Source: a virus. From it: a DNA stretch of 64,000 bases. The notes under the pieces are model-generated. The model ran no database searches. It was not told where the DNA came from and worked only from the letters and a program-made list of their open reading frames with translations. This document shows positions 5,239-51,205 of the stretch, one piece after another. The position numbers were made by a program, and so were the translations under genes. Numbering within the stretch: the stretch's first letter is position 1; each line of letters opens with the position of its first letter. Location: the IMG/VR virus record IMGVR_UViG_3300025151_000001, positions 28,241 to 92,240 of that record. One strand, written 5' to 3'.

Positions 5239-5243
5239 GAAAT

Positions 5244-14445: not shown

Positions 14446-14597
14446 TGACAGGTTGGGAAATTTTTGCTCTTATTGTTTTTTTGTTAATTGTGCTTTTGTT
14501 ATTCTTTGCAGCATTTGGCGGTTCTAATATCACCGATGAATCTGTTGAGCAATACATGGCTCGCTTAATCAATTCGCGTGATAAGAATGGGCCTTAA
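14445..14597 (+). CDS. 50-aa single-TM membrane protein (not in ORF track)
   Basis: MTGWEIFALIVFLLIVLLLFFAAFGG...; TGATG overlap. Confidence 0.6.
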   Translation: MTGWEIFALIVFLLIVLLLFFAAFGGSNITDESVEQYMARLINSRDKNGP

Positions 14598-25807: not shown

Positions 25808-27358
25808 TCACCCTAATGTTCTAGACGAAACGCTTCTATTAACCTTAGAGTTAACCATTCGGCCAATCTCGTCTGCAATTCTTCTTAGTTCTGCATTCGA
25901 TGTATCGCGTGCATTGATAGTAATGTTGAAGGTGTTGCCTCCGCCACCCATAACTCTCTTTGAATCTTGAGCAGTTCTAACTGTTGAACCTCTTGGAAGA
26001 CTAACCAACTCAGGGCCTCTTTCGCCAACTAAGGTCATTGGTGCAGTTACGGGACCACCTGCTGATTTAGCACCAAACAACTTTCCAAGTTTAGCCCCTA
26101 TCCAATAAATCAAACCAGCAACTACTGCTGCTACAATTGCTGCAATCCAAGTCATACTTAAGAAGAAAATAATTCCACCAACAACAATTGCAATCAATGT
26201 AATGATTTTCTTAAATGAAGCAGCCAAGTCTGTCCAACCTGTAGTTAGCCAATCCCATCCTCTTTTGATAACATCCATGATTAAAACACCAACTAGCATA
26301 AATGCAGCACTTAAAAGAGTAACAGCAACACCAAGAGAAAACAGCAGCATTCCTCCAAGAATCTTAAGAAGGCCGTCAATTAGCATTTCTAAATCCCCTC
26401 CGCCAAAGAAAGCATTAAAGACATCTTTAACTCCATCAAAAGCAATCATTAAACCTGCTAAAGCAATTTTTCCTACGACCTTAATTGCTTCCCAAGCCGC
26501 CTTTAGGCCTTCTAAAATAGATGGACCGAATGCTTTGAATGCTAAATAGGCTAAGATAATAATACCAACAACTTTGAAAATAATACCCATAAACATAATT
26601 GCTGCCCTTACTACAAACTTTTTAATTAGTTTCATAATCTTTCCAATGTCAGATTTATTGAACTTTTTAATAAAATCTCTTGAATTTTTCTTTGATTCTC
26701 TAAATCTATCTGATAGTTTTCCACGAAGTTTCTTTGGATTTAATACTTGCTTTAATTGTTTGAAAGTAACAGGCATATCCATACCTGTAATAGCCTTTAC
26801 CGTAGCACTTCTTCTTCTAAGCCTCATTGTTTTTTCAGCCTTTTGTCTGCCTGCTAATTGTCTTCCTAAACCTCTAATTTCATCGGCATCTGTAGATTTT
26901 CCTATTCTATTAGCAAATGTGCTTTGTGCTTTTTTTGCTCCCCTAATATTAGAGGTATACATCTCGATTCTTTTTAAATCAGCCTTACTTGGTGCTAATT
27001 TACTAAATAAGTTTTTGGTTCCACCAAACTTTTTTAATCCCGGAAACTTTCTAATAATAAAGTCGGTTTGCTCAAGAAGAGAAACGATTTTATTGAACCC
27101 TCTGAAGAAATCAAAAGGAAAGAAACCATATAACACTCTTCTGAATTTTGCGAAAGCGGTGTCTCCTTTCCTAGCGTATTCTGCAAGCCGTCCGAAAGCA
27201 GTTGCGGCTCCTTCTGCTTCCTTAGTAGTTTTTTTAATGTCTTTCTCAACTTTTTGACTTGCTAAAGATAGTTTTTTCATTACCTCTAGCATCTCACCCG
27301 TTGTTTTATTCAGACCATCAAGAGCCGATTGCATCTTGATAATCTGAGAAGCCTTCAT
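25808..27358 (-). CDS. tail tape measure protein
   Basis: Follows the chaperone pair; helical with hydrophobic segments; VGERGPELV motif. Confidence 0.8.
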   Translation of the reverse strand: MKASQIIKMQSALDGLNKTTGEMLEVMKKLSLASQKVEKDIKKTTKEAEGAATAFGRLAEYARKGDTAFAKFRRVLYGFFPFDFFRGFNKIVSLLEQTDFIIRKFPGLKKFGGTKNLFSKLAPSKADLKRIEMYTSNIRGAKKAQSTFANRIGKSTDADEIRGLGRQLAGRQKAEKTMRLRRRSATVKAITGMDMPVTFKQLKQVLNPKKLRGKLSDRFRESKKNSRDFIKKFNKSDIGKIMKLIKKFVVRAAIMFMGIIFKVVGIIILAYLAFKAFGPSILEGLKAAWEAIKVVGKIALAGLMIAFDGVKDVFNAFFGGGDLEMLIDGLLKILGGMLLFSLGVAVTLLSAAFMLVGVLIMDVIKRGWDWLTTGWTDLAASFKKIITLIAIVVGGIIFFLSMTWIAAIVAAVVAGLIYWIGAKLGKLFGAKSAGGPVTAPMTLVGERGPELVSLPRGSTVRTAQDSKRVMGGGGNTFNITINARDTSNAELRRIADEIGRMVNSKVNRSVSSRTLG

Positions 27359-28101: not shown

Positions 28102-30054
28102 TCACCCTTGGAGAATCCAATGGCTTACTGCGGTGCAGGATTGAAGAGTTCTAGGCATAACTGTAGCCTCAACAACTACAGGGCCTTTATCGTCAGGGAT
28201 TGGGAAGTTAACCGCAGAGGTTTGATAGTCAGTAAATTTGAGATTAAAGTTCTCGCCATTTGCTTTTTCAAACTGTAGTTCGATGTATTCTCCTGAAGCG
28301 GTGTTATCACCTGTTCTGCTCAAGAGTTCAGTATAGAGTTTGTCGTCAGTAACGTGTCCTGTAAATTGCAGTTCATAGGTTCTTTGTGCAGGAATGCCTT
28401 CTTTGATAGAGGTGTTACCCACGCCAATGAATCTCCGGTCTTGAAGATTGTTATTCATGGTCAAAGTTAGAGAATTGATTTTTAAGAACTGTTGACCAAA
28501 AATCTTGAAATATCCGCGAGAGAAGAAGAAAGGTTCAAGGAAGGTTGGTTGAGAACCGTAATTGAAGAAAGTAGTTTCATCAGTTACGCCACGACGAGCA
28601 TCATAAGATTCTGTTTGTTCAAGTGAATGAACTGCTCGACTGTTTAAGTCAAGAGTCATCTTGATTTCTTCATTTTCGTTAGCACTAAGCGTCAAGGTAT
28701 TTACTCTATTTCCACGCGCAATCTTAACAAAGTTTAGGCTTTCATCAGCCGATGCTGTTTCAGTTCTGTAAGTGTTGGAAGAGGGAAGTTTGCTAAACAC
28801 TTGCTCAATAGCAAAAGAAGGTAAGTTGTCTGTATCTTGTTCAGCAAAGGTGTATGTAATTCCATTAGTCATGTTACCAGAAGATTCTCCCGGAACAGTA
28901 AGTTTATCCATGTTCGCAAGAGCGTCCGAACCTTTGAGAATCGGAGGGCAAATTACCGTTCCAACCGAACGATAGAAAATTGGACCCGTTTCAACGTGTG
29001 CGCCTGCATCAAAGTAGGTTGCACCGGAAGTTTGAGCAGTAAATTCATCACCTGCCGCTAATGATTCAGTAGCGCTAGTCGCTGAAATGGTTGTGCATTT
29101 CCCTAAGAAATAATATAGCCAAGCAGCATGGTTAGCAACAATTCCTAGATTTGCACCACTAGCAGTTTCAATTCCTTTATACTGATAAGTAAAGTTACGC
29201 GAGCCACCGAGAGAAAGGTTCACCTGTTTCATTTCAACTTCAGTAGTTGGGAATGTAGCAGATTCAAGAATACCTAACCATTCATCGGCTAAGAGTCTTG
29301 CAGTTGCAGCCGTTGTGACGCTTGCACCGGCAGTAGTAGTAGTTTTAGTCATATTTGTGCTATCGGACACAGAGAGACTTTGACTAACTGTTCCTCCAAA
29401 GGTGTTAGTTAAAACTAAACTATCTCCGCTTCTTGAAGCAGAAAAATGAATAGAACCTGTTTTAGCAACTTCAGCAACAATAACGTCAATGACTTCTTCT
29501 GCCGTAGTGATATCAGCATCACTAATATCAACAGTTAAGTTAGCAGTTGCTCCTCCGTATGAACCATCATTAGTCAAACCAATTACATAGGCAGTTGAAG
29601 TTGCTCCATCTGAAGAAGGAACTTGACCAAAAGAAATGCTATCATTATCATAGTTAGCCTTAGTATCTGAATTAAATTTAATGCTTAAAACTTGAGCAGT
29701 ATGAATACTTGTGGAACCATCACCGGGTCCGGGAACAGGCGCACCATATCCACGAATGTGGAAATAATCCTGTGAAGTATTTACTGTAATGCTAGAGGAA
29801 ATAGCAGGACTAAAGGTAATTGTTGTTGCGGTGTTAGCAGTAATTCTGTGAGAAGAAGTAAAAGTCCCATTGTCGTAATATTCAATAACACAACCTACAT
29901 AGAGGTCTTTAACTAACCGATAATCATCTGAAAAAGCAGTTGCTACAGTAATTACGTTTTGAGTATTAATAACCGAAATCGGAACGTAAATATCAGTTTC
30001 AGGCACAAATGTGAGCGATGCTCCGCTTCCTAGAAAAATGTCGGTGTTAGGCAT
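28102..30054 (-). CDS. major tail tube protein with extra N-terminal domains
   Basis: LPSFAIE, VNTLTLS, LTMNNNL tube motifs; precedes the chaperones. Confidence 0.7.
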   Translation of the reverse strand: MPNTDIFLGSGASLTFVPETDIYVPISVINTQNVITVATAFSDDYRLVKDLYVGCVIEYYDNGTFTSSHRITANTATTITFSPAISSSITVNTSQDYFHIRGYGAPVPGPGDGSTSIHTAQVLSIKFNSDTKANYDNDSISFGQVPSSDGATSTAYVIGLTNDGSYGGATANLTVDISDADITTAEEVIDVIVAEVAKTGSIHFSASRSGDSLVLTNTFGGTVSQSLSVSDSTNMTKTTTTAGASVTTAATARLLADEWLGILESATFPTTEVEMKQVNLSLGGSRNFTYQYKGIETASGANLGIVANHAAWLYYFLGKCTTISATSATESLAAGDEFTAQTSGATYFDAGAHVETGPIFYRSVGTVICPPILKGSDALANMDKLTVPGESSGNMTNGITYTFAEQDTDNLPSFAIEQVFSKLPSSNTYRTETASADESLNFVKIARGNRVNTLTLSANENEEIKMTLDLNSRAVHSLEQTESYDARRGVTDETTFFNYGSQPTFLEPFFFSRGYFKIFGQQFLKINSLTLTMNNNLQDRRFIGVGNTSIKEGIPAQRTYELQFTGHVTDDKLYTELLSRTGDNTASGEYIELQFEKANGENFNLKFTDYQTSAVNFPIPDDKGPVVVEATVMPRTLQSCTAVSHWILQG

Positions 30055-32099: not shown

Positions 32100-33329
32100 T
32101 CAAACCTCCATTAGTTCAAGATAATTGTTTCTGATTACAGCCGCAAAGTCTCGAAGTTTTTTACGGTATTTTGAACCTTTTCTTTGGGTTCCTAATGGAA
32201 CAGAAAAACCGATAGAGGTGTAGTCATCTCCTTCGCCCTTTCCCGAAACTAGACCTGTTTCAAACAGACCGTGTGTTTTAATACCTGATAGTTTAATCTT
32301 ATATTTTGTTTTCATGGATTCGATTTCTAATTCCATATTATAGAGATGCCAATCATTAGGATAAACTTTTTGAATAAATTTATCAGGATTTCTAATGATT
32401 TCAGAAAGAGTCATTCCTTCAAAGCGTTCACTACCTTCATCAACTTTTTTTCTCTTTTGTTTATGAAGATGGAAGATTTCCAAAAGAATTTTTTCTTTGA
32501 TTGCGTTAGAAATTAAGAAATTAAATAAATCCTCACTAACAGAATTTTTAATCCTAATTGAATAGTCTTCAAAGTTTTCATCTTCCTTAGCATCCTTGAC
32601 CTTACTAAATTCTTTTACTTCTTTTTTAAATTTTGAGACTAACATATTAAATGCGTTTGTGTGCAAACCGTCATCCTTAACCCTATCTCTAGAGACATCA
32701 TAAAAGATTGTTCTAGGTTCTTTGACGGGAGTTAAGTAAGGACTATAGCCTTCCTTTTGTAAGTAATCTACCTTTGAACCACTAATATCACTCGTTTGGC
32801 TTTCTGAAAGTTCTACAGATAAAACATTTTCTTCACCAATAAAGCCTTCATTTTCATTTGAATAATTTCTTTTAATAGCCTTTTTCAAATAATTAGAAGT
32901 AATAAACCCATCGGTCCCTGCTTCAATTTCTGGTGGCCTTTGAAACTGCCTAAAACCTAAAAGTCTCTTAATCTTTTCATCATCTAAGATTTCATCTAGA
33001 GTTAAGTCTTCTAATGGTTTTTCAACTTCATTACCAGAATCAACTGTAAACTTTGCATAAAGTTTCTGGCCCCGAAGAAGTTTTCCAATTGGTGTCTTGC
33101 TAATATCTTTCACAACCCTTTTCATTTCTTTAACCATTTCTTTCTGGCTAAAGCCCTTTACCTTTTCATTTCTAGGGTCTTCGATTGCCTCTTCCAATAA
33201 GTCCAAGTTATCAGCAAATGCTGAACCTGTAACTACATCAGAAAACATAGCACCTAAAACAAGAGTTCTAAATTCATCGCTACTAGTTTCAATGGCCTTA
33301 GTAGCATCAGCGCCAATTAGAACTCTCAA
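32100..33329 (-). CDS. hypothetical charged protein
   Basis: Long ORF; GAGGTG SD before TTG. Confidence 0.6.
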   Translation of the reverse strand: MRVLIGADATKAIETSSDEFRTLVLGAMFSDVVTGSAFADNLDLLEEAIEDPRNEKVKGFSQKEMVKEMKRVVKDISKTPIGKLLRGQKLYAKFTVDSGNEVEKPLEDLTLDEILDDEKIKRLLGFRQFQRPPEIEAGTDGFITSNYLKKAIKRNYSNENEGFIGEENVLSVELSESQTSDISGSKVDYLQKEGYSPYLTPVKEPRTIFYDVSRDRVKDDGLHTNAFNMLVSKFKKEVKEFSKVKDAKEDENFEDYSIRIKNSVSEDLFNFLISNAIKEKILLEIFHLHKQKRKKVDEGSERFEGMTLSEIIRNPDKFIQKVYPNDWHLYNMELEIESMKTKYKIKLSGIKTHGLFETGLVSGKGEGDDYTSIGFSVPLGTQRKGSKYRKKLRDFAAVIRNNYLELMEV

Positions 33330-33339
33330 GTAAAACACC

Positions 33340-33972
33340 TCACATTAGCCACTTAGCCCAAGCCGCACCCTTTTGTGCAACTTGCATCAAGCCTAATCCT
33401 GCTTGTGGGGGTTCATAGGACATTTGCCCTGTTTGTGGGTCAATCCAATAAGGACGACCATAGCCGTCTGTTCCGGCAGGTGGAACCGGATAACCTGAGC
33501 CGTTTTGCATAGCCCCTTGCATTTGATAACCACCGGCCATAGCACCACCCATAGCGCCACCACCAAATGCAGCCGCGCCCGGTGAACCTGCACCAAAGCC
33601 TTGAGATTCAAGGTATTGCTGCTTCGCCATTTTACGTTGCTGAATTACCTCTTGATTTAATGCAGATTGTAGAATTCTCTCGATATCAAGTTCGATATTT
33701 TCAGCAGTAATTCTTTCGTATTCTCGCATAGCATCGGGGTTCATTGTCGCGGAAGTTCCGTTGATATCCAATTTTAGTTTAGTTAACATTTTGCTTACTA
33801 CTCTCTCAGTAACATCTTCCATTAACTTTTCTAAAGTGCTAAGAAAATCCTTACCGTGGTATTGGAAAAATTCTTCAACATGGTTCTCTTGAAGAGAAAG
33901 AAGATTATTGACGGTTTTAAACGTCGTATCTCCTTGGCTGCTAATTGCGTTAATCACGTCTTTCTGTCCCAT
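33340..33972 (-). CDS. helical protein with Gly-rich linker, WW-like motif and amphipathic C-terminus
   Basis: DGYGRPYWIDPQTGQMSYEPP; GLMQVAQKGAAWAKWLM. Confidence 0.55.
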   Translation of the reverse strand: MGQKDVINAISSQGDTTFKTVNNLLSLQENHVEEFFQYHGKDFLSTLEKLMEDVTERVVSKMLTKLKLDINGTSATMNPDAMREYERITAENIELDIERILQSALNQEVIQQRKMAKQQYLESQGFGAGSPGAAAFGGGAMGGAMAGGYQMQGAMQNGSGYPVPPAGTDGYGRPYWIDPQTGQMSYEPPQAGLGLMQVAQKGAAWAKWLM

Positions 33973-34600
33973 TTAATTCAACTCCTTTATCAACTAAGTG
34001 ATTTAATCTTTGAATGCTTGCATTAAGGTCATTCAAAAGAGCAGATGCTTCAGCCCTCTCGTCCTCAATCGTTGCAGGGGCGGGCGGCTTTATAGACCAA
34101 CCGGCGGCGGTGAGAGAGGTAACATCTTGTGGTGTTAAGCCGGTAAGTGGTCCTTTTTTCATAATTGAAGGCATTTTAGGTTTAAACCCTTTAAATTCAA
34201 GACCATGTTCATTAGCAAGAATCTGTTGCTCTAACATTTCCATTTGCATATGAATAGCAGCGTGTTTAGGACAATAGGTTCCTCTCATTGGGCGACCCTT
34301 ATGGACTTCTGTTAAAGGAATAACAGGGCGTAAATAATCTCCTGCATCCCAATGGTGATGTGTTCCACAAACAACACAACGGTCCTTAAGATTAAATTGC
34401 TTTCCATATCTAAAGAACAGAAACTTCTTCTTTTCTGGTAGCAATACCTTTCTAATTTCCTTAAGTTGTTTCTTAGGTTTAATTGAATCATATTTGTATT
34501 CTTCAATCTGACCCGGAGAACGAAACATCGGTAATTTAGGCAAAAATGCCGAAGGTGCTTGGGCACTTTGCATTCCCATTAGTTGTGGTTGCTGATACAT
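33950..34600 (-). CDS. Zn-finger plus coiled-coil protein
   Basis: CVVCG...YCPKH; C-terminal heptads. Confidence 0.6.
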   Translation of the reverse strand: MYQQPQLMGMQSAQAPSAFLPKLPMFRSPGQIEEYKYDSIKPKKQLKEIRKVLLPEKKKFLFFRYGKQFNLKDRCVVCGTHHHWDAGDYLRPVIPLTEVHKGRPMRGTYCPKHAAIHMQMEMLEQQILANEHGLEFKGFKPKMPSIMKKGPLTGLTPQDVTSLTAAGWSIKPPAPATIEDERAEASALLNDLNASIQRLNHLVDKGVELNGTERRD

Positions 34601-34605
34601 AATAA

Positions 34606-35265
34606 TCAATAATCCTTAATCATTGTGAAGATTCCTTTATACACCATTTCAGGGTCAGATTTTGCAGAAACAATATACTTAAAACAAGGTATTCCTCTAT
34701 CGTTTAGTTTGCTCATTCCGTATCTAAAGGGTTCAAAGATTTCATGTTTTAGAATATCATCCGTTGGATATTTTTTTCCCCAAATATCATATTTGTTTGC
34801 CCAAATTCCTACCGCTAATGGAAAGTCTGCATCCTTTTTCTTTTTACCGTCAGGCCAATAATCATTAATCATCGCATCAACAAAAAATTTCCATGCAATT
34901 TGGTGGTCCATATTTGAGTCGCTATCTAAGTGTCGGTGGTCAATCATAAAGATAACGTATTTTACTTTCCTCTCTCGCATATCTTTGAGCCATTCTTTCC
35001 AATAGATTGCCTCTCCACCAATGTCTGCTGTTTTTAATGTATGAGCATTACCATCGAGTTTAACATATTTTCTTGATGCACGGTGTCTTCCGACCGTTCT
35101 TTCTTTAATTTGTTGAACTTCTCCCCGTGTTCTCAATTGATGATGTAATGTTGTCTTTCCAACCATTGTTGCTCCATAAACTCCAAAATGAACTGCATGA
35201 AGTTTTCTGTAAATAGCAAGGGCCGCTTCCGTCACAACAACCGCAAAGCCCGTAAGAAGAGACAT
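34606..35265 (-). CDS. Arf-like small GTPase
   Basis: G1 GATMVGKTT, G2 RTVG, G3 DIGGE, VIFMID, G4 ANKYD, G5 VSAK; N-terminal hydrophobic helix. Confidence 0.8.
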   Translation of the reverse strand: MSLLTGFAVVVTEAALAIYRKLHAVHFGVYGATMVGKTTLHHQLRTRGEVQQIKERTVGRHRASRKYVKLDGNAHTLKTADIGGEAIYWKEWLKDMRERKVKYVIFMIDHRHLDSDSNMDHQIAWKFFVDAMINDYWPDGKKKKDADFPLAVGIWANKYDIWGKKYPTDDILKHEIFEPFRYGMSKLNDRGIPCFKYIVSAKSDPEMVYKGIFTMIKDY

Positions 35266-35280
35266 TCATTGAAACCCTCC

Positions 35281-35496
35281 TTAATGAGTAAAAATACCAA
35301 CAACGGCGTTAATCATCCAACCGATGATATCAACACCAAAGACTCCACCGACATTACCTAAAAGTAATGCGGCAACGGAACAAGTAATTCCGTAAAACCA
35401 AGCCTTTAATTTAAGAAACATAATGTCGGCAGAATGGGCGCGAGTCTGATTATACATGTAATCAGAATCAGACATACCCATAAGGTCCATCAACAA
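35281..35496 (-). CDS. small membrane protein
   Basis: Long hydrophobic C-terminal half. Confidence 0.65.
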   Translation of the reverse strand: MLMDLMGMSDSDYMYNQTRAHSADIMFLKLKAWFYGITCSVAALLLGNVGGVFGVDIIGWMINAVVGIFTH

Positions 35497-35506
35497 TCAT
35501 ATCACC

Positions 35507-35899
35507 TTATTGCAATTTAGCCAAGAAGTCAGCACTAACCTCGTTGTTTTGGTTTTGAAAACCAAACTGCGGTGAAGTGTTATAATCCGTTTGAAATTGC
35601 TTAGATGCTTCAAGAAGTTTTTTCTTTTGTTGTTCGTCACGGGACATTCTTGCCCAATATGCTTCAATCTTGCGGTCGAGCAAAAACAATTCAATACGGT
35701 CATTGAGGAATAAGTCCCCAATGGCTTTCATAATCATAATTGCTCCAACAGTAACTAAACCGAAGAGAACCCCGTGGGCTAATTTGGTATATGGGAAATC
35801 AATCCCATATTTAGAGTAAAAGAAAACATTTGCTCCGCTAAGACAACCACAAAATAAAATGGTCATAATCAGCCGAGTATCTTGATTGAGAGCAGCCAC
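35507..35899 (-). CDS. two-TM membrane protein with charged tail (holin-like topology)
   Basis: Two hydrophobic segments, then a coiled/charged C-terminus. Confidence 0.65.
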   Translation of the reverse strand: MAALNQDTRLIMTILFCGCLSGANVFFYSKYGIDFPYTKLAHGVLFGLVTVGAIMIMKAIGDLFLNDRIELFLLDRKIEAYWARMSRDEQQKKKLLEASKQFQTDYNTSPQFGFQNQNNEVSADFLAKLQ

Positions 35900-37220: not shown

Positions 37221-38564
37221 TCATTGAAGGTTGGTAATCTTACCTTGACCCTTGAAGAAGGAACAGCCAACTTCACCGATGGTTCGGTAAAGAGCGCGGT
37301 TCCCGAGGGTTCCAACACCGAAGGGGTTTCCGTTGGAAATACCGTCCTCGAAGTATTGAGTAGGTTTCATAACAGATAGCCACATATGGTCGGTATCTAG
37401 GAAAAGCAAGTCACTAATCGAAGTTGAAGCGCCGGTAGTTGAAGGCATATCCTTGACCGGAATCAGAGGAATGTCGTAGTAGGTCGAAACACGGAAACCG
37501 ACTTCTTGGCCCTTTACACCACGAACGCCGTTCACGGTCGGAACAATTTCTTTTCGGTCCATGAAACGCTCTTGGCTCTGCAACAGGTCAGAAATGGCCT
37601 GAATGGTGTCGTAGCCCGTAAGGATAACCTTAGGAGAACCACCGGCGGTTCGCAGGTTGCGAAGAGTGTCGTTTAAGCGAGTTAAGGTCAAAGCCCGAAC
37701 ATCACCCGCAGCATAGCCACTACCGAAGTCAACTTGAGCATCTAAGAAAGATGCAGCGGTAAATCGCTCAGAACCGAAGATTTTACCCAAGTTGTTGGTA
37801 GCACTAGTTACATCGGTAGCAAGAACGTTATCGTCAATAGCAAGCAATTCATCACGGCTCGAAACAACCTTCATCAAAGATGTGTAGTTTCGCTCAATGT
37901 GGGGCATAGCGGAGGTTTCACCATAATGCTCCAAGGGCATAACGAGCATCTTGTTCTGAACTTCAGAGTGGTGCTTACCCATGTCTTCACGCATTTGAGC
38001 GCGAATGTCGCCAATACCGTCGTCAATCGCTGCCATTTCCATAGCCAATTCGGAGAAGTCGAATTGATGTGCGACTACTTTCGGAGAAACAAACAGTTGA
38101 GCGTAGGTTGGAGCAATTGGACCCAAACCATCAGCCGCAGTTGAAAGACCTGCATTCTCAGGAACGCCACCGATTGCGTCAGCACGGGGAGCATCTGCAC
38201 CGAGTAAAGCAGCATTCAAGGTTCCTGAGGTAGCAAGACCGAATGTATCACCACTACCACCGGCAGGGCGAGACTTCAGGATTCTCCAACCGGAGGAAGT
38301 GTATGGGCGCTTTGAAATCATCGAAAGAGCGTTGCATTCGCGGTTTAGCATAGACCAAACCTTTTGACCGTAAATTACGTTATAGAGGGAAGATAGGTCA
38401 CTTGCTGCCGTTGTTCCAGAACCGACACCTAAAGCAGTATCGTGTCCGGTGTGAAGACCGGCAACTGCGCCTGCTTGCTTCAGTAACGAATTACCTGCGG
38501 CAAAGTTTCCAAGTCCGTATGTTTGTGCTTCTAAATCTGCAATTGTGTTAATATAGCCACTCAT
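37221..38564 (-). CDS. major capsid protein (HK97 fold)
   Basis: Follows the protease-scaffold; 447 aa; YYDIPLIP and LFLDT motifs of archaeal tailed-virus MCPs. Confidence 0.88.
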   Translation of the reverse strand: MSGYINTIADLEAQTYGLGNFAAGNSLLKQAGAVAGLHTGHDTALGVGSGTTAASDLSSLYNVIYGQKVWSMLNRECNALSMISKRPYTSSGWRILKSRPAGGSGDTFGLATSGTLNAALLGADAPRADAIGGVPENAGLSTAADGLGPIAPTYAQLFVSPKVVAHQFDFSELAMEMAAIDDGIGDIRAQMREDMGKHHSEVQNKMLVMPLEHYGETSAMPHIERNYTSLMKVVSSRDELLAIDDNVLATDVTSATNNLGKIFGSERFTAASFLDAQVDFGSGYAAGDVRALTLTRLNDTLRNLRTAGGSPKVILTGYDTIQAISDLLQSQERFMDRKEIVPTVNGVRGVKGQEVGFRVSTYYDIPLIPVKDMPSTTGASTSISDLLFLDTDHMWLSVMKPTQYFEDGISNGNPFGVGTLGNRALYRTIGEVGCSFFKGQGKITNLQ

Positions 38565-38575
38565 GTTAAATCACC

Positions 38576-39238
38576 TCAAAGGTTTCCTCCGGTAAGACGG
38601 TGAATATCGGACCAATCCATCTTGGCGATATCGTCTAAGGTTGGAATGTTTGCAACTGCTTCTTCTTGAGCCTTTGCGATAACTTCACGTTCTGAGGTCA
38701 GAGACTTGCGAAGTTCAGTAAATTCGTTCTTAAGAGAAGCGATTTCGCTAGCAGCATCATAGTTCTGCTTTGCGATAAGATTCTCACGGGACGAAACTTC
38801 GGACTCAAAGCGAGCCGAAAAAGACTTCTGAAGGTTGTCGTAAGCGAGTTTTTCTAACTGCTCTTGACGGAAAGCCTCGTAAGCCTTTTCGATGTTTCCA
38901 ACGGAAAGGTCAAGGGTTTCTAACTCTTGGTTGTTAAATGCCTTAACAACGGGAAGGTCGGAAGCCTTTGGTTTTCCGTTTTCAATTACTACATGGTCCG
39001 CAGGTTCTCCAATTTCGACACCTGCGCCATCAAGAGTAGAAACAACAGCCTTTGCTTCCGAATCGTCCATGTATTCCATAGACTCTTCTTGGTCATCCAT
39101 CATTTCTTCGGATTCTCCGCCATAGTCACCACGTTCCATTTCGTCATCCATCATTTCTTCTTCTTCCTTTCGGAGCGAATTCACTTCTTTGAGAAGTGTA
39201 TCTAACTCTTCTAGTGCTTTTTCTAGTTTTTCGGTCAT
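38576..39238 (-). CDS. nested in-frame scaffolding protein
   Basis: Internal CAGGTGAGAAAATG (GGTGA SD + ATG 39238) right after the protease domain. Confidence 0.55.
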   Translation of the reverse strand: MTEKLEKALEELDTLLKEVNSLRKEEEEMMDDEMERGDYGGESEEMMDDQEESMEYMDDSEAKAVVSTLDGAGVEIGEPADHVVIENGKPKASDLPVVKAFNNQELETLDLSVGNIEKAYEAFRQEQLEKLAYDNLQKSFSARFESEVSSRENLIAKQNYDAASEIASLKNEFTELRKSLTSEREVIAKAQEEAVANIPTLDDIAKMDWSDIHRLTGGNL

Positions 39239-39781
39239 TTTCTCACCTGTTTTTTCTTGTTTTAAAATGTCAAACTTTGCTTCCGGGTTAATTCCTTTTT
39301 CACAAATCGTGACTTCATGCAGTTCTAACTTTGAAATTTCGTTATATTGTCCTAATTCAGAATTTGATTTCTTGACTTTCTGTAATGCTTGTCCACCAAT
39401 ACTAAAAGAACGGAGAGAACCTTTTCTAATTCCTCTGTTAATCTCCTTGGCTTTTTCGATATCATCGCGTAGTTTGATAACAACAAAGAATCCTACATCA
39501 TCAACTTCTGTTTTCCAGAGTCTTCCTGTTTTATCTCGGTAAGAGTCCACTACTTCTCCGACTTGAACATTTGAATGGTTGGTCATTACATTCCTAAATG
39601 ACTTTTGTTCCATGAATTTCTTAACTGCTTCGTTAAGTGCTTTGAGGGTAATCAAATCATTTTGCTTATCAACGATTTCAATGCTTGCATAACCACCAAT
39701 CATTAAGTCGTCGTTGCTTTTGAGAATCGTGAAATCTCCATCATCACCATTGGACTTCAGGAGGGTTCGCATTCCTCTCAT
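38576..39781 (-). CDS. prohead protease fused to scaffold
   Basis: GYAS...VDKQND, NHSN (His), RSFSIGG (Ser), LHEVTIC...GINP; acidic coiled-coil C-terminal half. Confidence 0.88.
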   Translation of the reverse strand: MRGMRTLLKSNGDDGDFTILKSNDDLMIGGYASIEIVDKQNDLITLKALNEAVKKFMEQKSFRNVMTNHSNVQVGEVVDSYRDKTGRLWKTEVDDVGFFVVIKLRDDIEKAKEINRGIRKGSLRSFSIGGQALQKVKKSNSELGQYNEISKLELHEVTICEKGINPEAKFDILKQEKTGEKMTEKLEKALEELDTLLKEVNSLRKEEEEMMDDEMERGDYGGESEEMMDDQEESMEYMDDSEAKAVVSTLDGAGVEIGEPADHVVIENGKPKASDLPVVKAFNNQELETLDLSVGNIEKAYEAFRQEQLEKLAYDNLQKSFSARFESEVSSRENLIAKQNYDAASEIASLKNEFTELRKSLTSEREVIAKAQEEAVANIPTLDDIAKMDWSDIHRLTGGNL

Positions 39782-39818: not shown

Positions 39819-42308
39819 TCAGGACTCAGGAATGGTCAAAGAATTATACCTGTCTTTGTAAATGTTCCATAAACCTTCATCTCCTTCTTTATCAGCCGGA
39901 GTTTGTTTATAGCCTGTCCACGCTAGCCACATTTTTTCATCCTTTACAGGGATAACTCTAAGGTGCAGTTTAGTTTCAAACTTATTACCCTTTAAGAAAT
40001 ATTCATGATATCCTTCCCTTTGGACACCTAATCGAATATCTCCTGCATCAATCAAGTCTTCCCTATCTTTAGTTTTAGAAACTTGAGCAGGGAATTTACC
40101 TGCTTTTCCGAACAACTCAAAAATTGCATCTTTTTCCGGTAGTTCAATATACCAAACTAAGTTTTCATCACCGAGTTGAATGCTAAAATCTAAGTTACCA
40201 TCTTTTCGAAGATAAATCTTAAACAAACCTTCTCTATATTCTTCGGGAGTTTTATATTCAGACTTGATTAATTTATCTGTCTCAGAAAACAATTTCTTTT
40301 CGGACATATCATAACTGATACCGTCCCTTTCTTCAGCCCAAGTCATTAACTTACGCTCTTTACTTTCTAGAATATCTTCATATTCTTCTGATTTCTTTTT
40401 CTTCAAGAAGTTATGCAATTCTCTAACTGTCTTTGGGCCTTGTTCTTTTAAGAAATTGATAATAGATACAGTAAGTTTTGCTTGCTTTGTTTTCATAATT
40501 TCCTCGGCTTGAGCCTTCCACATATCTAAATCTGCAATAGCATTCTTGGACATAAGGTTAGATTCTTCAAAACCATAGATAGTAAAACCATCATAATCTG
40601 ATTTAATGATTAATGTGGCCTCACCATGAATAAAGTCAGTAACTTTGATTCCTTTTTCTAAAGCACTAACATCATAATTTAATGATTTCTTAGTATCTTG
40701 AGATAACATATCTAAGGTGACAATTTTATCAGGTGCTTCTACTTCTGGGATTTCAATGACCTTTGCTGAGAAAACTGTGTATCTATCCCCGGCAGGCTTT
40801 ACTTCATCAACTTTCACACGAATAATGTCGCCTACCTTAGCAGAAATTTTGGTGTTAAGGGCCTTGCCTACGTCCATGTAGGTCTTGCCTTCAATCTCCC
40901 TGAAGTGCTTACCTTCGCCTTCTGTTGGTCCTGCGCCGAGCGTATATGAATACAGATTGCTTTTAGTCTTCTTAACATCGAGAACAATAAGGTCCAAGTC
41001 AACAAACTTCTTCCACTTAATCCATTTTGGATTCTTTCTTGTTCCAACATAATAAGTTGAGGTGGTGTCTTTAATGACCACACCTTCAGATGTAGGCATC
41101 TCCATAATTTCCTTCGAATAAGATTCAACATCTTTAATATTGTCGGCCATTCTAGTGTCTTTCTTGGATGGGAAAGCAACCTCTGTTGAAGAGCGAGAAG
41201 AGTAATTGTTGAAAAGAATAGTAATTCTATCCTCTAGCGGTTCTTCGATTAGCGACCTGTTCTCATGTCGCATAATATCGAAAACGTGCGCTCTTAGTGT
41301 AGCATTTGGGTATTTGCCTTTAAACACATGAGCAATTGTGTCTGCTCTATGAAGTGCTTCATCCTCATCAAATAAAATGAGTTCAGCATCAAGAATACAG
41401 TCTCCGTATTGTTTCTGCTTCATTTCTTTTACTTGGTCGGGACACTTATCAGTAATATCCTTTTCATTATAAGAATAAATTTTAACCTTATCATCAATCT
41501 TATGAATTTGGATTCTCATACCATCATATTTTTCTTGGATGACCCAATTACCACTAAAACCTTTTAATTCATTCAGGTCTTCAATATCGAAAATACGATA
41601 CATTGGTTTATTTGGAACTAAGAAATCAGACTGTGCTTTTTCCTCCACAGACTTCTGGGCCTTTTCAATTTCTTTAAGTTCATCTAACTCTTCTTCTTTG
41701 TGTTCAGAGAGATAAAACATTTCTAAAAGGTCAAGAGCAGAACTAACTTTGCTTTCGACCTTCTTTGAGTCTTTTCCATCACCGTATTGCTCGATGATGT
41801 ATAGGGCAACGTCGTCCACTTCTAGGTCAAGACCGGGGAAGCCGTCCGTAATTTCGTCCGGTTGCATATCTTTAATGCTCCAAACTTTCTCAGGAAGAGC
41901 ATCATTCCCGTCCCTTAGAGCATAGTGAAGAAACTTAGCCATAGTCTCTGGTTCTTCAAGTAATACTTCAAGAACTTTATCTTTGTATTTCTTTGTGAAA
42001 GGGTCATTGGCTTCATCAGCGGAAAGTCTCATATTTTTAATGCTCTCATAAATCTTAGATGCTTCATTGGTTTGTGGGTCCGAAGCATCTTTTGCTTCTA
42101 ATACATTTTCATTAAGGTAGTCTTCTAATACATTTGAAAGAGCATTAGTCTTAGAATAAATTTCCTTTAAGTCTTCAACTGCTTTTCGCCAACGACTACC
42201 GTATTCTTTTGGGTCTTCACGCGCAGAAAGATACGCTACGCGAGTCTTCTCGAATAAGCGAATAATCTCTTCAGAAGGAGATTCTTCTTTGTCGAGAAGA
42301 AGAGGCAT
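39819..42308 (-). CDS. lig: ATP-dependent DNA ligase with N- and C-terminal extensions
   Basis: QEKYDGMR, ILDAE, VFDIM, EGVVIK, WIKWK, OB domain. Confidence 0.9.
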   Translation of the reverse strand: MPLLLDKEESPSEEIIRLFEKTRVAYLSAREDPKEYGSRWRKAVEDLKEIYSKTNALSNVLEDYLNENVLEAKDASDPQTNEASKIYESIKNMRLSADEANDPFTKKYKDKVLEVLLEEPETMAKFLHYALRDGNDALPEKVWSIKDMQPDEITDGFPGLDLEVDDVALYIIEQYGDGKDSKKVESKVSSALDLLEMFYLSEHKEEELDELKEIEKAQKSVEEKAQSDFLVPNKPMYRIFDIEDLNELKGFSGNWVIQEKYDGMRIQIHKIDDKVKIYSYNEKDITDKCPDQVKEMKQKQYGDCILDAELILFDEDEALHRADTIAHVFKGKYPNATLRAHVFDIMRHENRSLIEEPLEDRITILFNNYSSRSSTEVAFPSKKDTRMADNIKDVESYSKEIMEMPTSEGVVIKDTTSTYYVGTRKNPKWIKWKKFVDLDLIVLDVKKTKSNLYSYTLGAGPTEGEGKHFREIEGKTYMDVGKALNTKISAKVGDIIRVKVDEVKPAGDRYTVFSAKVIEIPEVEAPDKIVTLDMLSQDTKKSLNYDVSALEKGIKVTDFIHGEATLIIKSDYDGFTIYGFEESNLMSKNAIADLDMWKAQAEEIMKTKQAKLTVSIINFLKEQGPKTVRELHNFLKKKKSEEYEDILESKERKLMTWAEERDGISYDMSEKKLFSETDKLIKSEYKTPEEYREGLFKIYLRKDGNLDFSIQLGDENLVWYIELPEKDAIFELFGKAGKFPAQVSKTKDREDLIDAGDIRLGVQREGYHEYFLKGNKFETKLHLRVIPVKDEKMWLAWTGYKQTPADKEGDEGLWNIYKDRYNSLTIPES

Positions 42309-42313
42309 ATAAA

Positions 42314-42829
42314 TCATCTAAGATTAATGAATTCTTCATCGGTTCTACTATGTCCAGTTCTACCGGCTCCACCATATTTTTGTTGTTCTATATAATCTTC
42401 CATCGCTTTTTCATGAAGTTTTGCGATTTGGTTTACATGATAATTGTCTTTAGTATCGGAACTTTTACTCAGTTCCTTAATGTGATGGTCCATCATCTGA
42501 AGCGAAGCCAATAATTTACCGGCGAGGCCGGGATAACCTGCTTTTTCTCTAGGTGGTCCTCTAAACTTAGCCTTCTTCATTTCTTGACCTGCAAGACCAT
42601 AACCTGAATGAGTTTCTTCACTTTGGGTCTTAATCTTAGTCTTATCAGCCTGAGCCTTTGGTCGCTTTAACTTGGCATTTTTGGCTTCATGCTCAACTTC
42701 ACCAATTTGAGTAGGCTCAATGTTCTTTCTTTTCTTTGCACTCAATTCTTCCTTAGCCTTTCTAGCCTTTTCAATAGCAAGACTCACTAATCTTTCTTCG
42801 GGTGTAACTCTTTCTGGCATTTCACTCAC
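42314..42829 (-). CDS. charged hypothetical protein (putative internal head protein)
   Basis: IEKA and MKKA sites; between portal and protease. Confidence 0.5.
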   Translation of the reverse strand: MSEMPERVTPEERLVSLAIEKARKAKEELSAKKRKNIEPTQIGEVEHEAKNAKLKRPKAQADKTKIKTQSEETHSGYGLAGQEMKKAKFRGPPREKAGYPGLAGKLLASLQMMDHHIKELSKSSDTKDNYHVNQIAKLHEKAMEDYIEQQKYGGAGRTGHSRTDEEFINLR

Positions 42830-45556: not shown

Positions 45557-45850
45557 CTAAAGTCTATCAATCACTTCTTTAGAAAATTCTTCATAATCGT
45601 CTTCCGTGTAATCTGTAAGCAAAAGGATGTTAGGTTCCCCATTTTTAGTTGTTAGATTATATTTTTTAGCAATATCTAAAAGAATTTCATATTCTTTTTG
45701 ATAGTTATACGGCTTTTCAAAGAAATAAAAGATGCTTTCTCTTCCTGCACCTCCAATAATCTGATAATTTTCTAAAGTCTTTCCTAGAGCAATAAGAATA
45801 TCAGGAGTTCCCGGTAATCTTTCTGCCTTTCTTAATTCATTCTTCCACAT
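45557..45850 (-). CDS. small protein with WKNELRK leader
   Basis: MWKNELRKAE. Confidence 0.6.
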   Translation of the reverse strand: MWKNELRKAERLPGTPDILIALGKTLENYQIIGGAGRESIFYFFEKPYNYQKEYEILLDIAKKYNLTTKNGEPNILLLTDYTEDDYEEFSKEVIDRL

Positions 45851-47496
45851 CAAGGAATCCTCCTTTCACTTCTTCTATCAACGTTTTGATTACCCGCATC
45901 TTCAGGTAATCCGGTGAATCTCTTATCCGGTCCCACGCTTTGCCGTGCTTTATTTCTTGTGGCCGGTGGGTTCTCTTGGGGCGTAGGACTTCCACCCTGT
46001 AACGCTTGGCGTTGCATTTCATCGAGGTCACGTTGGTCAACGTTTGAACCTGCTAATGGGTCAACCTTAGCACCTTCTTCACCTTCAGGTTGTTCTTCAG
46101 GTTTTGGTTCAGGCGGAGGTTTCTTGAAAGTAAATTGTCCGTCTTCATCCATATCAACCTCAAAGCCAATATTTTTCATAGAAGCAGCAAGGCTAATTTC
46201 TAATTCACGCTTCCTAAGAACAGCAATTTCATCTTCTTCTTCGGATGGTGGAAGTTTAAGTTTCCAATCTGTGATACCGAATTGTTTAGTTAAGTATGGG
46301 AAAACGTAATTGTTATACACATTCTGAGCCATTTGGACCGCACGATTCGTAACAAGGATTTGCATACCTTCATTGTTAAGACCACCGCTTGTTGTGTTAT
46401 CAGCCATAAAGACTTTGCTTACACCATAGAAAGCAGAAATTCTGTCGCGTAAGTCATCCTTTACTGCGACATAATCCATCTCTTTTAGGCTGTCCATAAA
46501 CTTAATCCATTCAATAGCACCTTTGCCGTTCTCGGCTTCAATACCCATTACAGGAATAAAATGGGGGTCAGCCTCCATCTTCTCTTTAACGGAACGCCAG
46601 AAAGAACGCATGGATTCCATGTTTCTAGTTTGAACTGCAAGAAGACCACGGGGCATTCTACTCTTAGTGTAAGATTGATTTACATAATTCTCCATTGCAA
46701 TTAGAGTCATGATTAAATTATAAAGAGTAAGAATAGGAGAAGTCCCATATAAACGAGAAGGGCTATATTTACTAAAGTGAAGAATTTCTCCTTCAATGAA
46801 ATATTGGTCTTCTCCATGAGCGCGATTCACGAAATGAACAGGAAGAAGATTACCACCACAACTTTCACAAGTTTCATGCGGTTCAGAGACTAATACTGAA
46901 CGATGATTAATACAAGTAAAGCCTTTGGTTCCTCTAACTCCATCCTCATCCGAGTAAATATTCATAGTTACAGGGTCGCCCCGATACATTTCTTTGATAC
47001 GATGCATTCTAATTTTACCGTTCCCATCAATAAAATATTCTTTAACAAGAACAATGTATGCATCATCCATAATGTTGAGGTCGTCTTCTAATTCTTTAAG
47101 AACATCAATGAATAATTGTTCTGACTTATTAACATATCCTTCAATAAAGTTTTCAGCGTAAATTAGTTGTTTAGGATTAGGTTTTTTTAATTCTGTTGAA
47201 CCACACCTAGCACACTCATCAACCGGCTTATCGTGTTCTTTTCCACAACTTTCGCATCTTGCTTCAAATGCCTTTTCCCAATGATAGCCTCGTCTAAACG
47301 TTTCCTGTTTTAATTGCGTAGTGCAAGTTCTAGCGATAACAGATTGCTGATGCAGAGAATAAATGATTGGAGAAGTTACCATGTGCTGATAACTTCTTTC
47401 TTGGATGCCCATATTGAAAACTTGCCTATCGGCAGGTTTCGGAGTTTGCCTCCTAAAGAGGTTAGTGATGGAGAAGCGTCTTGGTCCTTCAGCCAT
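45850..47496 (-). CDS. portal protein with Zn-ribbon insertions
   Basis: DDAYIV, EILHF...LYGTSPI, MPRGLL, ISAFYGV; CESC/CARC and CINH/CESC. Confidence 0.85.
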   Translation of the reverse strand: MAEGPRRFSITNLFRRQTPKPADRQVFNMGIQERSYQHMVTSPIIYSLHQQSVIARTCTTQLKQETFRRGYHWEKAFEARCESCGKEHDKPVDECARCGSTELKKPNPKQLIYAENFIEGYVNKSEQLFIDVLKELEDDLNIMDDAYIVLVKEYFIDGNGKIRMHRIKEMYRGDPVTMNIYSDEDGVRGTKGFTCINHRSVLVSEPHETCESCGGNLLPVHFVNRAHGEDQYFIEGEILHFSKYSPSRLYGTSPILTLYNLIMTLIAMENYVNQSYTKSRMPRGLLAVQTRNMESMRSFWRSVKEKMEADPHFIPVMGIEAENGKGAIEWIKFMDSLKEMDYVAVKDDLRDRISAFYGVSKVFMADNTTSGGLNNEGMQILVTNRAVQMAQNVYNNYVFPYLTKQFGITDWKLKLPPSEEEDEIAVLRKRELEISLAASMKNIGFEVDMDEDGQFTFKKPPPEPKPEEQPEGEEGAKVDPLAGSNVDQRDLDEMQRQALQGGSPTPQENPPATRNKARQSVGPDKRFTGLPEDAGNQNVDRRSERRIP

Positions 47497-47668
47497 GCTT
47501 AACGCCTCCGTCCGTCGCTTGTTCGTCATCATTCAAGAGGGTGTCGGCATCCATTGGCTGAGGCATACCTGCTTTTACCCAACAATCATAACAAAAGCCA
47601 AAAGGAGCCTCTGTTGAACCAAAATATTCAGGGTCATAACAACAACTATAATATTTCCAATCAGGCAT
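47489..47668 (-). CDS. small Cys-rich protein
   Basis: YSCC...FCYDCW; coupled to both neighbours. Confidence 0.5.
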   Translation of the reverse strand: MPDWKYYSCCYDPEYFGSTEAPFGFCYDCWVKAGMPQPMDADTLLNDDEQATDGGVKHG

Positions 47669-49262: not shown

Positions 49263-50693
49263 TCAAAAGTTCAGGCCCATGAAGCCGCGCTGCGGTCGGG
49301 AAGTGGTTGGGTTCCCACCGAACAGGTCCAAGTCGTCAAGCAGAATAAACGCTTCTGAAGCCTGATAGGTGGCTGCATTTGCTAAGGCGAGACTCATAAC
49401 CATGTCGTCATGTGCGCCGATTCCCTCAAACTTTCCATTGTCTGTAATTGCGAACATAGACATTTCTTCTACTAATGTTGAAGTAACTCTCCTACTTTCT
49501 TCATTGCCATAAGGGAACTGAATTTTCTTATTCTCAAGAGACATTTGAAGATTGAGAATAATCTCCTGCTTCTTCCGACGAGTCGTGTTGAAATCATGAA
49601 CGTTAATGTCCGCGACTTGGCGTAACTCTTGTGTGAAAGACTTTGCGAATGTATTTGTTTCAAACAAAACAACTTCAGGACGGAACATTGAGTTAATCAG
49701 TTTAACTTTCTGAATGTTGTCTCGGAATTGAACGTTCTTTGCTCGGTCAATATAGACCAAACGTTTGTTCTCATCCTCATCCATTTCGAGAACCGTGATT
49801 ACGTTATAGTCACCATCAGTTGAAATAGCAGGGTCCACACCAACGAAATATTTGTGACCTTCTCTTCGCATTGGCTTTAGAACGAGGTCTTTATTCTTAG
49901 CAGCATCTAAGTATTCTGGATTGAACAAACTCATACCTGTTGAAATAGGAACACACATATATTCTCTTGTGAACTTAAGAGTTCCAATTTCAGCCTTACG
50001 AGACATAAGAGCATCGTAGTTCCAACGCTCGGGCCATAGGGGTTCATTTAATGAATCTAAACAGGGATAAGTTCTAACCGTGTAGGCTTCGTTTTCTGCT
50101 AACTGTTGGTAAATATCTGTATAACTGAAAGGTGTTCCAATAACGCGAAGTGATGCGGTGTGGTGAAGTGTAGGAATCATGTCTCCATAAAACCAATCAG
50201 TAACCTTTTGAATAGCGGTCATGCTAAATTCTTTCAAAGGGTCGTCAATTACAATCTCTTGTGGGTGAAGACCACGAATCTGAGAACCGACAGAACGCTC
50301 AAGGATTTGGTTTCCATTCGTAAGAGTAATGTTTCCAATCGCCCAACCGCGTGCAGGTTTATATTTCTTGAGATATGGATGGGCGAATAATTTATCAATG
50401 TCTCTCATGTGAACCATTGTCTGTTTTTGGTTAGATGAAATATAAAGCATTTGATAAGGTGGCTCTTGGAAAACTAAATTCCAAACGACCCAACTGTGCA
50501 TAAATACAGACTTACCGTGGTCACGGGAACAGATGATAACAGTTCTTTGAGTGCTATTCATCAGTTCGTGCCATTCTTGAATATAAGATGGAAAGTCAAA
50601 ACCTAAAACTTGCTGAAAGAAATATGGAAAAGAAGTGGCGGACAACTTCATGTCCATTGCTTCTTGCAAGTCTAAAGGTGCGGACTCCATCAT
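49263..50693 (-). CDS. terL: terminase large subunit
   Basis: CSRDHGKS, IVIDDP, GTP, FTREY, VGVDPA, AHDDMVMSLALA. Confidence 0.93.
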   Translation of the reverse strand: MMESAPLDLQEAMDMKLSATSFPYFFQQVLGFDFPSYIQEWHELMNSTQRTVIICSRDHGKSVFMHSWVVWNLVFQEPPYQMLYISSNQKQTMVHMRDIDKLFAHPYLKKYKPARGWAIGNITLTNGNQILERSVGSQIRGLHPQEIVIDDPLKEFSMTAIQKVTDWFYGDMIPTLHHTASLRVIGTPFSYTDIYQQLAENEAYTVRTYPCLDSLNEPLWPERWNYDALMSRKAEIGTLKFTREYMCVPISTGMSLFNPEYLDAAKNKDLVLKPMRREGHKYFVGVDPAISTDGDYNVITVLEMDEDENKRLVYIDRAKNVQFRDNIQKVKLINSMFRPEVVLFETNTFAKSFTQELRQVADINVHDFNTTRRKKQEIILNLQMSLENKKIQFPYGNEESRRVTSTLVEEMSMFAITDNGKFEGIGAHDDMVMSLALANAATYQASEAFILLDDLDLFGGNPTTSRPQRGFMGLNF

Positions 50694-51205
50694 TTCCTCC
50701 CCCTTAAAACATAAAACCACTTTGAAATTGGTAAGCCTTTGACTCCCCATGTAGCGCCTTTAGGGTGATTACTGTAATAATTTCTAAAACCTTCAACGGT
50801 TGAATTATTTCCATAACTTCCCAACTGTTCATCAGTAGGGGCCATCGTCCATCCTTTACCTTCATTAATTCGAATCCAATCCTTATTAGACATAGTGCTA
50901 CTACTAAATCCAGCAAAATAAGGTTTTGGTAATGTATTATCTGCTTTTTCTGTTAATTTTTTATAAAATCCTTTTCCTTGATATTTTGGAGAAACGAAAG
51001 TTCCACCTCTTAAAGTAATGCCTTCTTTTTTAGAATACCCAGCAGCACCAACAATGTTGTCATCATCAAATAAAACTAAATAGTTGGTGATAGGATAAAA
51101 AGAATCAAGAGGAGAATTTTTCGAACGATTGCTCGGTAGGGTTCCTCCTTCTGTTTTTTTCCAAAGAGAAACTAATTCCTCTTTAGGCATATCTTTGAAT
51201 TCCAT
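50690..51205 (-). CDS. GNAT-family acetyltransferase-like protein
   Basis: FVSPKYQGKGFY acetyl-CoA loop; C-terminal KWFYVLR. Confidence 0.6.
   Translation of the reverse strand: MEFKDMPKEELVSLWKKTEGGTLPSNRSKNSPLDSFYPITNYLVLFDDDNIVGAAGYSKKEGITLRGGTFVSPKYQGKGFYKKLTEKADNTLPKPYFAGFSSSTMSNKDWIRINEGKGWTMAPTDEQLGSYGNNSTVEGFRNYYSNHPKGATWGVKGLPISKWFYVLRGRK

Follow-up and report, generated by a model that had tools for sequence, protein, structure and literature searches.

Prokaryotic relatives of the Arf small GTPases (ArfR) are reported to occur almost only in Asgard archaea (bioRxiv 10.1101/2024.02.28.582541), and in Haloferax and other Euryarchaeota the ArvA-ArvB-ArvC system (OapABC) combines a GTPase bearing a membrane-binding N-terminal helix with the zinc-ribbon protein ArvC, a proposed GTPase-activating protein (GAP), in vesicle formation (PMC10927574). 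It is not settled how tailed archaeal viruses exit from cells that lack a murein wall, and the sole GTPase considered in a review of archaeal egress is the host protein OapA/ArvA, as a speculative budding factor (PMC10791045). Here we describe a cassette of five head-to-tail genes on the minus strand at positions 33340-35899 of the window, that is, the whole stretch of 64,000 nucleotides analysed (positions 28,241 to 92,240 of virus record IMGVR_UViG_3300025151_000001). The cassette encodes a small GTPase, two membrane proteins, a zinc-motif protein and a Gly-rich protein, and is most likely a membrane-anchored GTP switch; we infer that it operates late in infection on the membrane of the host, for egress or for remodelling. 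Within the Arf/Sar1/SRbeta group, the GTPase represents a new and very divergent branch. We put the probability of this reading as a whole, with the genes as a self-contained and virus-specific module around a membrane-anchored G protein of this type, at about 0.45, that is, slightly short of even.

The preliminary description of this DNA, made from the sequence alone, had reported five G motifs in the GTPase, and all were identified: G1 GATMVGKTT, G2 RTVG (with T57), G3 DIGGE, G4 NKYD and G5 SAK. The motifs G1, G3, G4 and G5 are present in all 64 distinct sequences of clade 1, to which this GTPase belongs, T57 is invariant in an alignment of 18 sequences, and a Trp lies at G3 Asp+11 in every one of the 135 sequences in which G3 was located. 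By its sequence, the nucleotide-binding site is intact. The reported replacement of the catalytic Gln by Glu was also borne out (Glu in 64/64 clade-1 GTPases), and in the more distant clade 2 the same position is mostly Gln, with some Glu or Asp. The AF2 model (pLDDT 88.6) shows the classical fold of small GTPases, a six-stranded sheet with five helices, and a further helix formed by residues 2-22 precedes it. Insertions relative to Arf are located in the interval from helix 3 to strand 5 and behind G4. Within the N-terminal helix, residues G6, F7, A8 and E13 are invariant; its Kyte-Doolittle value is 1.9 over 17 residues, and its Eisenberg mean hydrophobicity and moment are 0.64 and 0.23. This helix had been called hydrophobic and amphipathic; the former holds, and the latter is not clearly so. 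A permanent SRbeta-like anchor is as plausible for it as an Arf-like switchable helix.

The hallmarks of the Arf/Sar/Galpha group are GKTT, DxGG and a switch-II Trp. These hallmarks, together with profile, Pfam (distant members), Foldseek and VIA-align comparisons, place the GTPase in the Arf/Sar1/SRbeta/Galpha group, so that the Arf-like assignment made earlier stands against that of an unrelated P-loop family. Taken singly, the window GTPase gave no Pfam Arf (PF00025) match at E <= 1; its best Pfam scores were below threshold (MMR_HSR1, 18.8 bits; Roc, 17.9 bits), and it reached 15 bits against SRbeta (PF09439, also SRPRB), for which the best family member obtained 22.5 bits and the cut-off is 25. 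The Pfam Arf threshold of 22.3 bits was passed by four distant members, P0161, P0180, P0174 and P0160, with 57, 39.5, 36.5 and 27.2 bits, respectively. These belong to a third clade with the switch-I motif SPT[TV]G, comparable to PTIG of Arf; its members are on contigs of 4 kb or less, no loci of this clade were found in viral or metagenome collections, and a search seeded with P0161 gave back P0161 alone. Against the PDB, the single sequence found no match with phmmer and the close-family profile retrieved KRas alone (E 0.1). The profile including distant members retrieved Arl3 first (E 8.7e-9), followed by Arl8, 8OUN, Galpha and Arf1, all around 1e-8; the entry 8OUN is the Asgard ArfR protein GerdArfR1 (bioRxiv 10.1101/2024.02.28.582541).

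Structural comparisons showed the same affiliation. Foldseek returned at least 500 small-GTPase matches at E <= 0.001 (best E near 1e-9), with the highest TM-scores for Arf6 (0.80), Arl1 and Arl6 and values of ~0.65 for Rabs. In the all-against-all comparison with VIA-align, Z was 17.9 for Arf6, 17.3 for Sar1, 17.1 for Galpha-s and 17.0 for both SRbeta and a Rag-like protein, and no more than 15.8 for the best Rab or Ras; Galpha, SRbeta and Rag are thus level with Arf/Sar in this ranking. The identity to solved Arfs is 17-22%. In Arf proteins, the defining interswitch toggle involves an N-terminal amphipathic helix that is released from its pocket when GTP binds. Given that the Pfam score of the window GTPase itself is below threshold, that the catalytic residue in clade 1 is Glu and that such a toggle would be hypothetical here, this GTPase is not filed as a strict Arf member.

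When 1.84 billion representatives were scanned in full with HMMER, 64 matched at E <= 0.001, and none of these is an ordinary cellular small GTPase. Among 185,579 species genomes (one per species), the GTPase was encoded on two contigs only, both with the viral cassette and both from one alphaproteobacterial metagenome-assembled genome labelled Maricaulis sp. (NZMJ01000024.1 and NZMJ01000101.1, with GTPases 71% and 62% identical to that of the window); these are most likely misbinned viral contigs. Judged by these scans, the family is virus-restricted and isolated. A tblastn comparison of the GTPase, a clade-2 GTPase and the Gly-rich protein with GenBank phages yielded no match, in a searched set that may leave out near relatives. 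As a separate observation, seven stretches of the 3338-residue protein P0155 match GTPase residues 55-86, from switch I to strand 3 (E 9.4e-10); this may be a repeat protein built from the GTPase segment or a compositional artefact.

The cassette was then compared across relatives, the clade-1 counts referring to the best 80 loci, chosen by GTPase similarity, of 458 IMG/VR stretches that encode close relatives of the GTPase. Co-conservation of the neighbours, which the preliminary description had proposed to check, was found: the partner genes keep their order in 71-79 of the 80 loci (Table 1), and misses occur mostly at contig ends. Clade 2, with GTPases 30-35% identical to that of the window, comprises 286 IMG/VR stretches on contigs of up to ~118 kb, and repeats the same architecture (TM / TM / GTPase / Zn / ~210 residues, TM denoting a transmembrane protein). 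With a hidden Markov model of the zinc protein, a homologue was detected directly 3' of the GTPase in 59 of 80 clade-2 loci. The ~210-residue protein matched the Gly-rich protein in hhalign (E 6.7e-5, probability 64%), and the two are probably homologous across the clades, as far as their sequences indicate. The clade-2 upstream pair consists of a protein in which two TM helices are followed by a long charged tail, and of a TM protein of ~82 residues; hhalign between the membrane proteins of both clades was not significant (E 0.056 and 0.018), and homology between them is not demonstrable.

The position of the cassette differs between clades. In the window it lies between the capsid and tail-tube genes, and its placement inside a morphogenesis module, as described previously, applies to this clade and not to clade 2. 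Three complete or near-complete clade-2 genomes have the cassette first and then, on the same strand, the terminase gene ~9 kb further downstream, followed by the genes for portal, protease, capsid and tail tube; there the cassette is 22 kb from the capsid gene, and the capsid-to-tube interval is without it. This change of place indicates that the cassette is a self-contained unit, relocated as a block inside the late region.

Several variations were observed among these loci. Clade-2 cassettes are followed by a gene for a 2-TM protein of ~80-88 residues (for instance, L094:8499-8753) and then by a gene for a ~230-residue protein with two CxxC pairs 55 residues apart (L094:9033-9731), with a similar arrangement in L086, L088, L113 and L149; neither was seen in clade 1. 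Some relatives carry extra open reading frames (ORFs) of 97-287 residues that separate the GTPase gene from the small TM gene or from the zinc gene (L002:6666-7529, L009:3814-4317 and 4994-5533, L027:5056-5691, L007:5706-5999, L032:6669-7519 and L065:6660-7235). Pfam searches assigned these extra ORFs to no homing endonuclease or other recognisable family; a V-SNARE N-terminal hit in one of them (20.2 bits, threshold 25.9) is most likely coiled-coil noise. The record IMGVR_UViG_3300021958_000021, at 184,733 bp twice the usual magrovirus length, carries two differing cassettes ~92 kb apart (L007, 153021-165677, and L027, 61182-73847; GTPases 78% and 74% identical to that of the window), which suggests that two related viruses were joined in a chimeric or concatenated assembly. 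Directly after the cassette of the window, a 412-residue Lys/Glu-rich gene (32100-33338, minus strand) is hypervariable, with a homologue detectable by BLAST in 3 of 80 related loci; the flanking genes on both sides are conserved.

All five cassette ORFs were recovered at the coordinates given in Table 1. Each is preceded by a ribosome-binding site of the GGTGA/GGAGG type, the genes are spaced by 1-15 nt, distances into which promoters would not fit, and they are co-oriented with the late (virion) genes. The overlaps noted earlier among the downstream genes are retained in part: 23 nt are shared by the zinc and Gly-rich genes, the only overlap within the cassette if the zinc gene starts at ATG 34600. 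Since its orthologues begin with MYQQ, this is probably the start, 5 nt past the GTPase stop, and the GTPase and zinc genes probably do not overlap.

The two membrane proteins reported upstream of the GTPase were confirmed by TM prediction, with membrane segments in three of the five products. The cassette encodes the sole small membrane proteins of the late strand in the whole 92-kb genome according to this prediction, the one other late-strand membrane protein being the four-TM product of the tail block (Table 1). The 130-residue protein contains TM segments at residues 10-28 and 43-61 followed by a 68-residue charged tail (10 K/R, 10 D/E) that ends in the conserved EFLAxLQ, with 45 invariant columns in 13 orthologues; such an architecture, TM helices with a charged C-terminal tail in a late operon, is holin-like in sequence terms. 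In the 71-residue protein, a conserved hydrophilic N-terminus (D..G.SDSDY.YNQ.RAHSAD) precedes a hydrophobic stretch of ~40 residues.

The finger protein described earlier as CxxC/CxxH was recovered as C78-x2-C81-x31-C113-x2-H116, the four residues being invariant in clade 1. A GR..GTYCP.H block is invariant across both clades, the first Cys pair is replaced by C-x4-C-x-C in the clade-2 homologue, and a C-terminal helix is present. The protein was considered as an ArfGAP finger and rejected, as the spacing differs from the CxxC-x16-CxxC that precedes a catalytic Arg in ArfGAPs and no Pfam match was obtained. Its family has at least 803 cluster representatives; for the 120 best listed, the longest contigs reach ~118 kb, and all of them are without a Pfam domain and without an informative name. 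The AF2 model of the zinc protein is poor (pLDDT 56.5), and the predicted complex with the GTPase, with a score of 0.00, gives no verdict and weighs neither way. The Gly-rich protein combines a conserved helical N-domain (residues ~20-125), a variable Gly/Ala/Met/Gln linker, the motif GYGRPYWID..GQMSYEPP, which is invariant, and a helix at the C-terminus with the sequence ..QKGAAWAKWLM. A WW-like motif had been assigned to it, and this did not hold: PF00397 scored 14.8 bits against a threshold of 26.9 and covered profile positions 10-31 only, the second half of the domain, with the first Trp region missing and the second Trp being Tyr, and clade 2 has no such motif. In the ESM Atlas, the zinc and Gly-rich proteins retrieved nothing above chance and no models.

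The virus record is complete (92,240 bp, with direct terminal repeats), with a GC content of ~38% (~35-45% within the window). Among named relatives of its GTPase, the closest is annotated as a hypothetical protein in Poseidoniales virus YSH_150918, which identifies the virus as a magrovirus of Marine Group II archaea, a group abundant in the ocean, and not as a haloarchaeal virus; magroviruses constitute the order Magrovirales (PMC10768690). Haloferax, put forward in the preliminary description as an expression model, is accordingly not a close host of this virus. Besides the genes listed in Table 1, a 52-residue ORF at 14439-14597 (plus strand), where the plus- and minus-strand gene blocks meet, has a very hydrophobic segment (Kyte-Doolittle 3.37 over 19 residues) and may be a real small membrane protein.

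Table 1. Genes of the cassette and of the late region in the 64,000-nucleotide window, with the number of the 80 clade-1 loci in which the gene keeps its order and orientation (aa, amino acids; TM, transmembrane).
Feature	Position	Strand	Remarks	Clade-1 loci
93-aa upstream gene				79/80
2-TM membrane protein, 130 aa	35507..35899	minus	GTG start after GAGGTGAT	79/80
Small membrane protein, 71 aa	35281..35496	minus	one or two TM segments	79/80
Arf-superfamily small GTPase, 219 aa	34606..35265	minus	G1-G5 intact, N-terminal helix	
Zinc-motif protein, ~216 aa	33950..34600	minus	219 aa if TTG at 34609 is the start	76/80
Gly/Gln-rich (Gly-rich) protein, 210 aa	33340..33972	minus	helical N-domain, variable linker, C-terminal motif	71/80
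Large terminase	49263-50750	minus	late block	
Portal	45850-47532	minus	late block	
ATP-dependent DNA ligase	39819-42317	minus	late block	
Prohead protease	38576-39781	minus	late block	
SU10/HK97-type capsid protein	37221-38564	minus	late block	
Tail tube	28102-30054	minus	late block	
516-aa protein	25808-27358	minus	tail-gene block; four predicted TM segments (252-403); no Pfam match	

Taken as a whole, the interpretation given in the preliminary description is partly supported, and the membrane-remodelling, lysis or viral-factory activity it proposed is something we infer from sequence features. The cassette probably functions as a complex, switched by GTP, at the membrane of the host. In the mechanism that we propose, the N-terminal helix would hold the GTPase late in infection to the cytoplasmic side of this membrane, and the zinc protein, a candidate GAP or effector, would control the GDP/GTP cycling of the GTPase, which would parallel ArvC, the zinc-ribbon protein encoded in the vesiculation operon ArvABC of archaea. 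The active GTPase would organise the holin-like 2-TM protein, the small TM protein and the peripheral Gly-rich protein into a membrane assembly that would remodel or breach the membrane, most probably timing or executing virion release. Its use as an egress or lysis device can be put forward tentatively; the more specific proposal, in which magroviruses exit wall-less hosts through a GTP-switched membrane breach, with the Arf-like GTPase and the zinc regulator gating the holin-like proteins, is more doubtful. To our knowledge, the presumed Poseidoniales hosts are without a murein wall, so the lack of an endolysin is uninformative.

Several observations weigh against this proposal. The replacement of the catalytic Gln by Glu in clade 1 makes the hydrolysis chemistry uncertain, and the N-terminal helices of clade 2 are less hydrophobic (median Kyte-Doolittle 1.18). 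The four partners gave no significant match to any described family, holins included, in Pfam, PHROGs or NCBIfam, and the Gly-rich protein has a weak match, restricted to a helical segment, to phrog_14074 ('virion structural protein', E 3.4e-4). In addition, median identities across the clade-1 loci are 74% for the GTPase, 68% for the capsid protein and 54-59% for the membrane proteins (a comparison biased by the selection of loci on GTPase similarity); phage holins usually diverge fast, and these values fit a multi-partner machine better than a simple holin.

Other functions must be weighed against the same evidence. The membrane features predicted in the cassette and the Arf/Sar1 type of the GTPase fold could also serve vesiculation or membrane proliferation of the ArvA kind, in which the host membrane would be reshaped, without lysis, into assembly platforms or into decoy or transport vesicles; the nearest functional analogue, ArvA-ArvB-ArvC, pairs an N-helix GTPase with a zinc-ribbon protein and is required for the formation of extracellular vesicles (PMC10927574). 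This appears unlikely, as a tailed HK97-type virion does not need a membrane, ArvABC has no integral-membrane partners, and the cassette has no sequence link to ArvB or ArvC in the protein-family searches. The location between the capsid and tail-tube genes in clade 1 would instead suit virion-associated products, with the membrane and Gly-rich proteins packaged to serve on entry as a conduit for ejection or penetration, or the products acting as head/neck assembly chaperones with the GTPase as an assembly factor, which the phrog_14074 match would favour; moreover, tailed-phage ejection proteins often have TM segments. That match is limited as stated above, however, and no tailed virus is known to employ a small GTPase in its structure or assembly. 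The clade-2 cassette precedes the terminase by ~9 kb and stands 22 kb away from the capsid gene; the position is thus clade-dependent, which argues against a head-neck structural role tied to the neighbours and leaves virion association less likely still.

The inserted ORFs of 97-287 residues and the hypervariable gene just downstream are typical of conflict loci, and with the putative membrane location they could point to host takeover, signalling or superinfection exclusion at the membrane, the GTPase mimicking or interfering with a host G-protein pathway, or competing viruses being kept from entering. The five core genes are strongly conserved, however, and the cassette would be transcribed with the late genes, at a stage at which takeover genes, which are usually early, are not expected. 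The scarcity of the GTPase (64 representatives in 1.8 billion proteins and 2 loci in 185,579 species genomes) and its lack of cellular homologues mean that there is no evident host protein to mimic, and of the functions considered this one seems the most improbable. A GTP switch at the host membrane, acting in egress or remodelling, is the reading we retain.

Few archaeal viruses are as abundant in the sea as the magroviruses, which are linked to Poseidoniales hosts. The magrovirus papers searched mention no GTPase, the literature search returned no paper joining the two, and no searchable paper describes the cassette; for the cassette as a whole, we found no paper with a described counterpart. 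As regards the history of Arf proteins, hundreds of magrovirus-type IMG/VR contigs (458 of clade 1 and 286 of clade 2) carry a divergent Arf-group GTPase with its partners. A conserved, virus-specific membrane cassette offers a concrete and cloneable egress candidate that can be tested in heterologous hosts without virus culture. If exit through a GTP-switched membrane breach is true, the cassette would define a novel class of systems for viral egress, and in it a prokaryotic virus would for the first time own membrane machinery of the Arf type.

Comparison with the known systems shows partial likeness to each of them. Holin and lysis cassettes resemble this one in their small one- or two-TM proteins with a charged C-terminal tail encoded within a late operon, and the lysis genes of P2 lie between head and tail genes; unlike them, the viral cassette has no holin family match and no endolysin, and its conservation is far above that of typical holins. 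We know of no lysis cassette with a GTPase. SRbeta, the beta subunit of the signal recognition particle receptor, is Arf-like too, and a hydrophobic anchor at its N-terminus keeps it on the membrane, as would the N-terminal helix of the viral GTPase; its VIA-align score is tied with those of Sar1 and Galpha. SRbeta has a His at the catalytic position and no switch-II Trp, and no SRalpha-like partner was found.

With Arf, Arl, Sar1 and ArfR, the viral GTPase shares the six-strand fold, the GKTT P-loop, the switch-I Thr-x-Gly, DxGG, the Trp at G3 Asp+11 and, by prediction, an N-terminal helix ahead of strand 1. It differs from Arf in the clade-1 catalytic Glu in place of Gln, in an N-terminal helix that is hydrophobic rather than clearly amphipathic and in the G5 motif SAK, and from the almost exclusively Asgard ArfR proteins in being encoded by a virus linked to Poseidoniales hosts. 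As for ArvABC, the ArvC family PF09845 had 0 matches in the 92-kb genome, in a search that was positive in Haloferax and Methanosarcina controls, and no cassette protein matched DUF2072 or DUF2073 at E <= 1; the SepF-like ArvB is without a counterpart, whereas the two integral membrane proteins and the Gly-rich protein are additions of the viral cassette. What the viral cassette and ArvABC have in common is a GTPase with an N-terminal helix encoded beside a zinc-motif protein.

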